From: an uncultured Gammaproteobacteria bacterium
GTDB taxonomy: Bacteria; Pseudomonadota; Gammaproteobacteria; JAGOUU01
DNA length: 64,000 nt
Assembly (NCBI GenBank): GCA_964353115.1
Contig: CAYGUI010000001.1
Location: forward strand, 13,417 to 77,416
Direction: 5' to 3'
Part shown: piece after piece, positions 52,694 to 53,950 of the stretch
Layout: the number at the start of each line of letters is the position of its first letter
Numbering within the stretch: the stretch's first letter is position 1
Translations under genes and position numbers: made by a program
Notes under the pieces: generated by a model
Seen by the model: the letters and a program-made list of their open reading frames with translations, nothing else
The model's database searches: none
What the model was told of the DNA's origin: nothing

Positions 52694-53950
52694 ATGAATT
52701 TTCCTCATGGCAATGGTAGTTCTTCAGAGATATCTTCAAGTGTATTTACATATCCGTTCGAAAAAACTATAAAAGCAATTTCAAATATAATTGCGAGACG
52801 AAAGCTATTATCTAGTATTTTTCGTTTATTAGCTGTAGCTGCATCAATAGCAGTGTCTATTTATGTGCCACAAATACCAGCAGTATCAATTTATTTAATA
52901 GGTTTTATTTCTGCGGGGATTGGTGTTACTGGTGCTGGAGCGATAGCAATTGGCTCGGTTGGTATGGCTATAATTTTGACTGGTATATCTATCGCAATTA
53001 CCAAAAAATTCTTTCAGTATTATCATAAAAGACGTTATGGTTTTTCTAACCCAGAGCATCGTTTAACTAATCGTGATATAGAAAAAATTAGAAAAAGATA
53101 TCCTGAATTATCCGAAACCCAAATAGATGTAAAAATTGATGAAATTCGTAAAAAGATCCATCATTTGTCAGTACAAATTCGCAAATATAAATCTGAAGAG
53201 CGTCATAGTGACGCCAAAGCTCTTAAATATATTTTAAATAGATTAAAAACTGGTGACCTAGAAACATATGATAATTATTACCGTACTGAAAATTTTAAAC
53301 GAGCTATAAAGAAATCGAACCTTAGAAAAAAATTAGAAGAATTAGTAAAAAAATATCCAGAATTAGCTGTTAAATACGAAGAATTATTAAAAGAAACAGC
53401 AGATATTGATGAAGTATATGAAATGAATTACGAAGAAATTAGCGCAGAAATTTCAGCCCTAGATTCACCTGATTATGGCAGTAGGGTAGGCTCAGGATCT
53501 TCACAAAGAAAACCATTGCCACTTCCACCAAGGCCTTTACCAAATCCAGCTCCAAATTCAAGATCTACACCGCCATCGTTGCCGACTTTTCCTGGTCCGA
53601 GATCTAAGGCTGGTCCACAAAGAAAATTACCAAAATTTCAAGCAGCAGCTGCTAATCTATCTGGCCCAGCACCTGATCCGGAAATAGAGTTGTTACCGCC
53701 GCCGCCGACTTTTATGCGGCATAGCAAAGAGCAGGAATTAGCATCTTTAAAAGCATCTACTTTTCAAGTAGGAAAAGAGTCGGTCGATGATGGAAAAGAT
53801 CATGTTATAGAAGATGCTAAAAGGATGCTACTAATGTGGCCGCGTTATAAAGAACTATCTAACTCACATGATCCTCATAGAATTGCTGCGGCTCTTGCGC
53901 TAGAATTAGAAGGTCAAATTAAAAAATCTAAAAAAATACCACAACCATGA
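52694..53950 (+). CDS. Proline-rich protein with bilobed hydrophobic hairpin (Inc-like topology), translationally coupled to phoP; effector candidate
   Basis: Residues ~45-100 form a continuous bilobed hydrophobic segment. It is followed by a charged coiled-coil and then a Pro-rich tract (RKPLPLPPRPLPNPAPN...LPTFPGP...LLPPPPTF). The stop TGA overlaps the phoP ATG (ATGA). Confidence 0.5.
   Translation: MNFPHGNGSSSEISSSVFTYPFEKTIKAISNIIARRKLLSSIFRLLAVAASIAVSIYVPQIPAVSIYLIGFISAGIGVTGAGAIAIGSVGMAIILTGISIAITKKFFQYYHKRRYGFSNPEHRLTNRDIEKIRKRYPELSETQIDVKIDEIRKKIHHLSVQIRKYKSEERHSDAKALKYILNRLKTGDLETYDNYYRTENFKRAIKKSNLRKKLEELVKKYPELAVKYEELLKETADIDEVYEMNYEEISAEISALDSPDYGSRVGSGSSQRKPLPLPPRPLPNPAPNSRSTPPSLPTFPGPRSKAGPQRKLPKFQAAAANLSGPAPDPEIELLPPPPTFMRHSKEQELASLKASTFQVGKESVDDGKDHVIEDAKRMLLMWPRYKELSNSHDPHRIAAALALELEGQIKKSKKIPQP

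Follow-up and report, generated by a model that had tools for sequence, protein, structure and literature searches.

A hairpin membrane protein family from uncultured low-GC gammaproteobacteria, with a member encoded directly upstream of PhoPQ-like genes

The locus and the architecture of its first gene

This study concerns a gene for a predicted hairpin membrane protein (positions 52694 to 53950, forward strand) carried on a 64,000-nucleotide (nt) stretch of DNA from an uncultured Gammaproteobacteria bacterium (contig CAYGUI010000001.1, positions 13,417 to 77,416; assembly GCA_964353115.1), referred to below as the window. The open reading frame (ORF) starts with ATG, encodes 418 amino acids (aa) and is single-copy, with no paralogue within the window. 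On the same strand, it is followed by genes for an OmpR-family, PhoP-like response regulator (RR; 53947 to 54624; Pfam domains Response_reg and Trans_reg_C), a PhoQ-like sensor histidine kinase (HK; 54635 to 55975, starting 10 nt past the regulator gene; HATPase_c and HisKA) and, as the fourth gene of the cluster, a DedA/VTT-domain membrane protein (56055 to 56576; VTT_dom at 33.5 bits, just below the cut-off of 33.9). On the other side, leuS (50193 to 52556, reverse strand), the most frequent conserved neighbour of the family, is divergently oriented across an intergenic region of 137 bp (52557 to 52693), and beyond it lie lptE, holA, nadD and rlmH. Judged from its homologues and their genomic neighbourhoods, the gene is a real member of an undescribed, vertically inherited family of uncultured low-GC gammaproteobacteria. 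The features named in an initial annotation, made from the letters of the DNA, were all present as stated, namely, the ORF, the quoted hydrophobic segment, the charged helical region, the proline-rich tract and the ATGA overlap with the regulator gene.

That annotation also placed the gene at the head of a phoPQ-like operon, and the layout agrees with it. The gene opens a compact cluster that continues into the PhoP-like and PhoQ-like genes, with its own TGA overlapping the ATG of the regulator gene within ccATGAaa (ATGA at 53947 to 53950, forward strand), and the order is kept, with a 1-nt gap, in the metagenomic locus L081, whose LeuS is the closest to that of the window (62% identity). In L081, leuS is divergent from a 381-aa family member, which is followed by an RR gene, an HK gene and a VTT-domain gene; the successive junctions are TAA-T-ATG (the 1-nt gap), ATGA and TAATG, the last being an overlap of the VTT-domain gene with the kinase gene. 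Moreover, the L081 kinase orthologue carries HAMP_PhoQ, and the fourth gene there matches VTT_dom. In the window, no Shine-Dalgarno-like purine run was readable in the 20 nt preceding the regulator ATG, which fits translation by termination-reinitiation, and no terminator-like site was found between the family gene and the kinase gene. The top NCBIfam models were PhoP for the regulator (228 bits, against an equivalog cut-off of 336 bits) and PhoQ for the kinase (201 bits, against 497 bits); since neither cut-off was reached although these were the top models, "PhoPQ-like" is the accurate label for the pair.

The promoters of both leuS and the family gene must lie within 52557 to 52693. A sigma-70-like site oriented towards leuS was located at 52621 to 52593, and a block reading TATACTA..TTTA is also present in the leuS intergenic regions of L081, L082 and L083. 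A sigma-54 reading of a conserved CTGGC element was discarded, because the spacing is wrong on a direct reading; CTGGC coincides with the -35 region of the promoter-like site that points towards leuS. The leuS intergenic region contained no direct repeat resembling the enterobacterial PhoP box, a pattern that was also not enriched in the window as a whole; thus, autoregulation is unsupported by that consensus, which is enterobacterial and may not describe the site of this regulator.

Between the kinase and dedA genes lies a long hairpin (55973 to 56033, forward strand) formed by a dispersed 13-mer and a second, inverted copy of it, with a minimum free energy of -31.6 kcal/mol (z = -4.4). The 13-mer, TCTGGATTCCCGC, occurs 9 times in the window with at most two mismatches, compared with 0.39 expected occurrences, the copies outside the hairpin lying near 6182, 11309/11323, 15188, 33605, 38387 and 42689. 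The inverted pair looks like an intergenic element of the repetitive extragenic palindromic type and might end or stabilise the transcript. The kinase-dedA junction of L081 is without such a spacer hairpin.

The architecture of the protein was modelled with AlphaFold2, run with the family alignment (mean predicted local distance difference test score, pLDDT, 74.8; predicted template modelling score, pTM, 0.62), and residues ~10 to 250 and ~371 to 410 were mostly above a pLDDT of 90. Starting from the N-terminus (all coordinates on the forward strand), a conserved helix with the motif YPFEK..KA..N..RK (residues 9 to 33; 52718 to 52792; alignment A1; pLDDT 76 to 95) precedes a hydrophobic block (residues 38 to 103; 52805 to 53002), which was delimited by hydropathy, alignment and the model and comprises a first transmembrane segment (TM1), a short hydrophobic connector with an invariant Pro59 and a Gly/Ser/Ala-rich TM2. 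The block is followed by the juxtamembrane motif KKxFQxYYxxKYGxSNPExRLT and a helical domain (residues 104 to 256; 53003 to 53461; alignment A1), with pLDDT mostly 90 to 97 and 59 to 86 after about residue 230; five more helices are predicted between the hydrophobic helices and residue 256, and the charged helical region proper, residues 126 to 256, is mostly above 90. Then come a disordered, lineage-specific Pro-rich tract (residues 262 to 343; 53477 to 53722), with pLDDT 35 to 49 and disorder extending over residues 257 to 343, and a C-terminal helical module (residues 344 to 418; 53723 to 53947), with pLDDT 92 to 97 for residues 371 to 410 and model helices spanning 341 to 414. The C-terminus, ...ALALELEGQIKKSKKIPQP, contains ELE within a helix of pLDDT above 90; the acidic clusters of several other family members are clearer.

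Within the hydrophobic block, AlphaFold2 placed helices at residues 38 to 57, 61 to 76 and 80 to 115. In the alignment, the middle hydrophobic segment of the more distant, clade-B homologues is about 10 to 14 residues long, with Pro turns at its ends. On either side of the block, the 15 adjoining residues are strongly basic (+5/-1 and +5/0). Together, these features suggest that two TM segments form a hairpin and that the N- and C-termini both lie on the cytoplasmic side. Hydrophobicity was assessed by Kyte-Doolittle plots and by a crude, position-independent Hessa scan of 19-mers, the values of which are not numerically comparable with published length-corrected thresholds. On this crude scale, the best 19-mer insertion energy was -0.4 kcal/mol for the window protein, with a family median of +0.4 and a range of -1.2 to +3.0, while other window proteins gave -3.5 and -1.0 (the two kinase TM helices), -4.0 (the best helix of an MFS protein) and -3.0 (MurJ).

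P59 is invariant in 21 of 21 family sequences, and R44 and Q60 are invariant in a nine-sequence subset; such conserved polar or helix-breaking residues in a hydrophobic block suggest that it adopts a defined structure in the membrane and does more than anchor the protein. An oligomeric small pore or a membrane-remodelling hairpin of the holin, SLATT or reticulon kind, in which the Gly/Ser/Ala-rich helices would pack together and alter permeability or curvature, would accommodate these residues, which are located within the membrane segments or at their borders, together with the richness of TM2 in small residues (GIGVTGAGAIAIGSVGMAI) and isolated weak matches to SLATT and Reticulon (E = 0.002 to 0.015). 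These matches were, however, rejected as below threshold, each occurring in just 1 of the 21 members, and no toxin, immunity or phage context surrounds the gene, so that a pore or remodelling function appears very improbable.

An undescribed family and its genomic neighbourhoods

Homologues were sought by an exhaustive HMMER (phmmer) search over 1.84 billion representatives, in which the units counted are cluster representatives. Results revealed 20 other clusters (E = 4e-69 to 2e-4), giving a family of 21, whereas word-indexed single-sequence and profile searches returned almost nothing beyond the protein itself, and a metagenome scan with a narrower alignment yielded four loci, mostly already in hand. 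The members are unnamed or called "hypothetical protein", and the sole organism label among them is "Gammaproteobacteria bacterium", borne by two. Every source that was looked up is a metagenome assembly or an uncultured metagenome-assembled genome, and none is labelled Legionella, Coxiella or Chlamydia; one family-carrying contig was traced to a Sphagnum microbiome study (PMC9584203). The family-carrying contigs range from 28% to 47% GC, with the window at 33%. No relative was found among the curated families of Pfam and NCBIfam, among PDB sequences (best E = 0.13) or by Foldseek against PDB (E of at least 0.87). A Pfam DUF7746 match was set aside, as it was below threshold and limited to 1 of the 21 members.

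Sequence conservation is confined to residues ~10 to 220/260, that is, to the N-terminal helix, the hairpin, the juxtamembrane motif and the helical domain (AKxxLNxLKxGD..F..YY), and past about residue 260 both length and composition vary across the family. The core (N-terminal 215 aa) is 53% identical to its syntenic orthologue in L081. This value falls inside the range of 33% to 64% observed for the products of the neighbouring genes (RlmH, 64%; LeuS, 62%; RR, 60%; DedA, 60%; NadD, 56%; LptE, 46%; HK, 45%; HolA, 33%), indicating ordinary purifying selection on the core. The C-terminal module is common only to the two closest homologues, with residues 340 to 415 being 32% identical to the C-terminus of P0125 (E = 2e-6). 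As for the other tails, those of P0128-P0139 and P0153, otherwise unalignable, share (N)LYG[IL]K or LYxxK, and many of them carry an acidic cluster followed by a short end such as ..RASF, ..AFSLQ or ..SLAI. Both features, which are absent from the window protein, are candidates for linear motifs or secretion signals.

The Pro-rich tract contains 22 Pro among its 82 residues (27%, versus 3.9% in the other window ORFs, the densest of which reaches 12 Pro per 80 residues), and the local GC of its DNA is 0.44 versus ~0.33. A tandem-repeat origin of the tract is unsupported, as it is not a DNA tandem repeat. The initial annotation read this tract as a ligand for SH3 and EVH1 domains on the strength of three motifs, RKPLPLPPRPLP, RPLPNPAP and LPPPPTF. 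All three are present in the protein, but the assignment to both SH3 ligand classes held in part: strict patterns gave one class-I match (KPLPLPP), zero class-II matches and one [FLWY]PPPP match (LPPPP). When the 82-residue tract was shuffled 20,000 times with its composition kept, at least one class-I match arose in 55% of the shuffles, and therefore the SH3-type motif is no more than composition predicts; LPPPP-type matches arose in 4.7%, which is borderline even before correcting for the number of motif classes tried. In addition, the tract is absent from the homologue P0125 and is mostly missing from P0124, where it is unalignable and a short Ser-rich stretch stands instead. The ligand reading thus found no footing in either the relatives or the composition test. 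More generally, apparent "host mimicry" by proline motifs, when inferred from one sequence, can arise simply from the composition of a linker that evolves rapidly.

The genomic context of the family was compared across a sample of ~13 contexts, with the window included. Adjacency to leuS was seen in L081, L082, L083, L087-L089 and L094. The gene for P0126 is divergent from leuS and has an unrelated convergent gene downstream; that for P0125 is likewise divergent from leuS, on a contig that ends just past the gene; and those for P0127 and at a related locus are divergent from leuS and lie 4 nt upstream of nadD-rsfS-rlmH. The genes for P0128, P0129, P0130, P0133, P0134 and P0136 each lie between lnt-corC-ybeY-miaB and an OTCase-family gene, from which they diverge, and that for P0140 is located after sfsA. 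Single-copy vertical inheritance in housekeeping neighbourhoods is the stable feature of the family. An RR-HK pair downstream was observed in only 2 of the ~13 contexts, the window and L081; in the others, the gene either precedes nadD, rsfS and rlmH or stands alone. The hard-wired link to a two-component system proposed in the initial annotation is therefore not a property of the family. The Pro-rich tail and the PhoPQ-like link are recent, lineage-specific additions and do not define the family.

This distribution also bears on the possibility that the protein is a dedicated accessory or modulator of the PhoQ-like kinase, its hairpin contacting the kinase TM or HAMP regions, or its cytoplasmic domain binding the kinase or the regulator, as a larger parallel to MgrB and SafA. 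Such a role would suit the translational coupling to the regulator gene, the four-gene order kept in the nearest relative and the predicted placement of both proteins in the same membrane, and MgrB and SafA are themselves membrane proteins functionally tied to PhoQ. They are, however, shorter than 70 aa, have one TM and are encoded outside the phoPQ operon, whereas the protein described here has 418 aa and belongs to a family found mostly away from RR-HK pairs. About 11 of the 13 family contexts are without an adjacent RR-HK pair, no family member was encoded in a comparison set of 80 PhoP-like loci from reference genomes (regulators 40% to 50% identical), and the phoPQ-linked clade is distinguished by its C-terminal module and its tail instead of by the hairpin. 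A dedicated kinase accessory is therefore quite improbable; a kinase accessory conserved beside phoPQ, which the initial annotation had named as a finding that would speak against its own view, is likewise not what the 80 loci and the ~13 contexts reveal.

Possible roles: a resident membrane scaffold or a translocated effector

We tentatively favour, at a probability of roughly 0.4, the reading that the protein is a resident inner-membrane scaffold, the promoter of which would here also drive the genes for the PhoPQ-like system and DedA, making them a joint envelope module. The conserved core of ~220 to 250 residues, consisting of the N-terminal helix, the membrane hairpin with both ends cytoplasmic, the YYxxKYGxSNPExRLT motif and the helical domain, would sit in the bacterium's own inner membrane, making the protein a membrane-anchored cytoplasmic scaffold built from an anchor, charged helices, a flexible linker and a terminal interaction module. 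Past the core, the disordered tail is fast evolving, and in this protein it has turned Pro-rich and tethers the small C-terminal helical module. In one sub-lineage, the PhoPQ-like system and the DedA gene would then have come to lie directly downstream, a single promoter in the leuS intergenic region may drive all four genes, and translation of the regulator may be coupled, via ATGA, to the end of translation of the family gene. What the data show is that the gene is real and part of a family, how its conservation is distributed, which topology is predicted and with what model confidence, and that synteny and close gene junctions exist; residence in the inner membrane, a role as scaffold, transcription as one unit and a functional tie to the kinase are features that we infer.

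Several observations argue for residence. The basic flanks of the hydrophobic block conform to the positive-inside pattern and fit an N-in/C-in inner-membrane protein, polar and helix-breaking residues inside the block are conserved, the N-terminus is conserved in sequence, and the C-terminus is predicted with confidence to be folded instead of forming a disordered secretion signal. Moreover, the gene keeps to housekeeping neighbourhoods and in one clade heads a nadD-rsfS-rlmH cluster.

Two known systems offer partial parallels for a resident scaffold. In Pseudomonas aeruginosa, oprH-phoP-phoQ is an operon in which the gene of an envelope protein comes first and runs into phoP-phoQ. The cluster described here is similar in that an envelope gene stands first and the structural gene and the regulator gene probably share one promoter. 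Unlike OprH, which is an outer-membrane beta-barrel, the present protein is predicted to be an alpha-helical hairpin with its bulk facing the cytoplasm; in addition, a DedA gene is appended, no enterobacterial-type PhoP box lies upstream, and the arrangement occurs in two sampled genomes only. ZipA, a membrane tether in which an anchor is followed by a charged region, a P/Q-rich linker and a C-terminal binding domain, resembles the protein in having the same order of modules and a Pro-rich flexible linker on the cytoplasmic side. The two proteins share no homology, and they differ in that ZipA has a single N-terminal TM in place of a two-TM hairpin with a conserved N-terminal helix, while the linker and the C-terminal module of the window protein are unconserved in its family.

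Other observations weigh against a resident scaffold. The TM helices are marginally hydrophobic on the crude scale (-0.4; family median, +0.4), which suggests the range reported for secreted transmembrane effectors (PMC12981334), the family is confined to a lineage with signs of host association, and short motifs abound in the hypervariable tails. Furthermore, the scaffold is without a nameable partner or activity, and the RR-HK association, being restricted to two genomes, says little about the function of the family. If the resident scaffold were the right explanation, it would add an uncharacterised membrane-protein family without Pfam, NCBIfam or PDB relatives and a second case, after oprH-phoP-phoQ, of a structural envelope gene heading a PhoPQ-type operon, an outcome that would help annotation and would be unsurprising.

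The marginal hydrophobicity of the TM helices is one ground for a different explanation, according to which the protein is a translocated transmembrane effector, a conserved "core" effector of a host-associated gammaproteobacterial lineage that would be exported by a type IVB or type III secretion system (T4BSS or T3SS), with its hairpin inserted in a host vacuole membrane like those of Incs and of Legionella and Coxiella transmembrane effectors. The helical domain and the fast-evolving tail would then face the host cytosol, where the proline motifs could engage SH3, EVH1 or profilin-type domains. We regard this explanation as somewhat unlikely. Membrane effectors of T3SS and of the Coxiella T4BSS have hydrophobicities between those of soluble and classical single-span proteins (PMC12981334), and more hydrophobic effectors can pass via an inner-membrane intermediate (PMC12981334, a 2026 review); under this two-step model, insertion into the inner membrane and effector status are not mutually exclusive. 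The family-wide marginal TM hydrophobicity, as described for T3SS and type IV secretion system membrane effectors that escape the signal recognition particle (PMC12981334), is suggestive on the crude scale used here. Also in keeping with an effector are the bilobed hydrophobic domain, which would leave the two termini on one side of the membrane, the hypervariable disordered tails and, in many members, an acidic cluster 8 to 20 residues from the C-terminus that is reminiscent of an E-block signal; the LPPPP motif is mildly unexpected (P ~ 0.05).

The ends of the protein fit an effector less well, as the last ~45 residues are predicted to be confident helices rather than a disordered signal, and the N-terminus is conserved in sequence and not just in composition, unlike a type III secretion signal. 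The proline motifs are unconserved, with the SH3 motif explained by composition, and in one clade the gene heads the housekeeping nadD-rsfS-rlmH cluster. No secretion-system gene was found among the annotated ORFs of the 64-kb window or of any relative contig examined, and the family, with only 20 other clusters, includes no member labelled Legionella, Coxiella or Chlamydia. With no secretion-system gene in the window and no similarity to a named protein, nothing here shows the secretion that the initial annotation assumed.

The likening of the protein to chlamydial Incs was borne out in architecture, with a bilobed hydrophobic domain, helices and a disordered Pro tract, and went no further than that, as there is no similarity to any Inc and the phylum is different. 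As in Incs, a bilobed hydrophobic domain of ~40 to 65 residues lies near the N-terminus, the termini are predicted to be on the same side, and a helical, coiled-coil-like cytosolic domain follows. Neither sequence nor fold, however, resembles that of an Inc; moreover, the gene resides in a gammaproteobacterial genome, no T3SS gene is present in the 64-kb window, the N-terminus and the TM block are conserved in sequence, and inheritance is vertical within housekeeping synteny. Likewise, the family shares with the Dot/Icm transmembrane effectors of Legionella and Coxiella (PMC12981334) a TM hydrophobicity that looks intermediate on the crude scale, variable tails, acidic clusters in many members and hints of host association, but it differs from them in that no Dot/Icm genes occur in the available sequence, no member is labelled Legionella or Coxiella, and the C-terminus of the window protein is predicted to be folded.

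Several features of the carrier genomes hint at a host-associated lifestyle and lend the effector explanation some weight. One carrier contig (L092; 31.6% GC), which carries P0129, encodes an 846-aa ankyrin-repeat/U-box protein (126 to 2666, reverse strand), and the combination of ankyrin repeats and a U-box is typical of effectors of intracellular bacteria. Moreover, the lineage is low in GC, the window is rich in insertion sequences (IS) and has many orphan ORFs, and the best plasmid matches of its IS3 transposase are from Legionella adelaidensis (56%) and Piscirickettsia salmonis (54%). In its most far-reaching form, the effector explanation would posit a deep, uncultured and probably protist-associated lineage with a vertically inherited, Inc-like translocated hairpin effector that scaffolds the host vacuole membrane, with a tail that evolves host linear motifs and, in one sub-lineage, a coupling to a PhoPQ-like sensor that joins vacuole sensing and membrane remodelling as one unit; we consider this full scenario unlikely. 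If an effector role were true, the protein would extend Inc-like core effectors beyond Chlamydiae to an uncultured lineage and would be a rare effector translationally coupled to an environmental sensor, offering a handle on the timing of host manipulation.

Other features of the window

The gene content of the window includes tricarboxylic acid cycle, aa3 oxidase and translation genes, and its housekeeping groups (leuS-lptE-holA-nadD, murJ-ribF-ileS-lspA and the aa3 oxidase genes) indicate a proteobacterial context. The closest named relatives of its LeuS are from Methylophaga (57% identity). LeuS comprises 787 aa in the window and 780 to 788 aa on L081 and L088, compared with ~817 to 830 aa in most of the best database matches, and thus appears shortened in this lineage. 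Two family-carrying contigs have an unannotated gene of ~315 aa between rpsR and rplI (L095, 3406 to 4353; L097, 3570 to 4529), a conserved insertion into rpsF-rpsR-rplI that might be useful for assigning the lineage to a taxon. Scans of the window for Rfam families and tRNAs gave no matches.

Downstream of the four-gene cluster, two IS3-family copies in direct orientation (57177 to 58022 and 60711 to 61556), identical over at least 300 nt, bracket a gene for a 690-aa S9 prolyl-oligopeptidase (58552 to 60624), a layout that resembles a composite transposon. Adjoining one IS3 copy is a 136-aa ORF (56658 to 57068, reverse strand) that looks, by eye, like the C-terminal zinc-ribbon part of an IS605-type TnpB/OrfB and probably represents what is left of a truncated gene. 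A 47-nt unit present in two tandem copies (61921 to 62014; 96% identical) occupies an intergenic position upstream of a pyrophosphatase gene.

Seven ORFs of 173 to 548 aa without a significant Pfam match (1103 to 1996, 3606 to 4790, 4847 to 6493, 13006 to 14358, 24432 to 24953, 25104 to 25691 and 46050 to 46721) are interspersed among the housekeeping genes and are possible lineage-specific or host-interaction genes; five of the seven were scanned against NCBIfam, and none scored above a model cut-off. The ORF at 25104 to 25691 has the next-highest proline density of the window. Finally, a 506-aa protein encoded at 2063 to 3583 (forward strand) carries a class-3 lipase domain as its only Pfam match.

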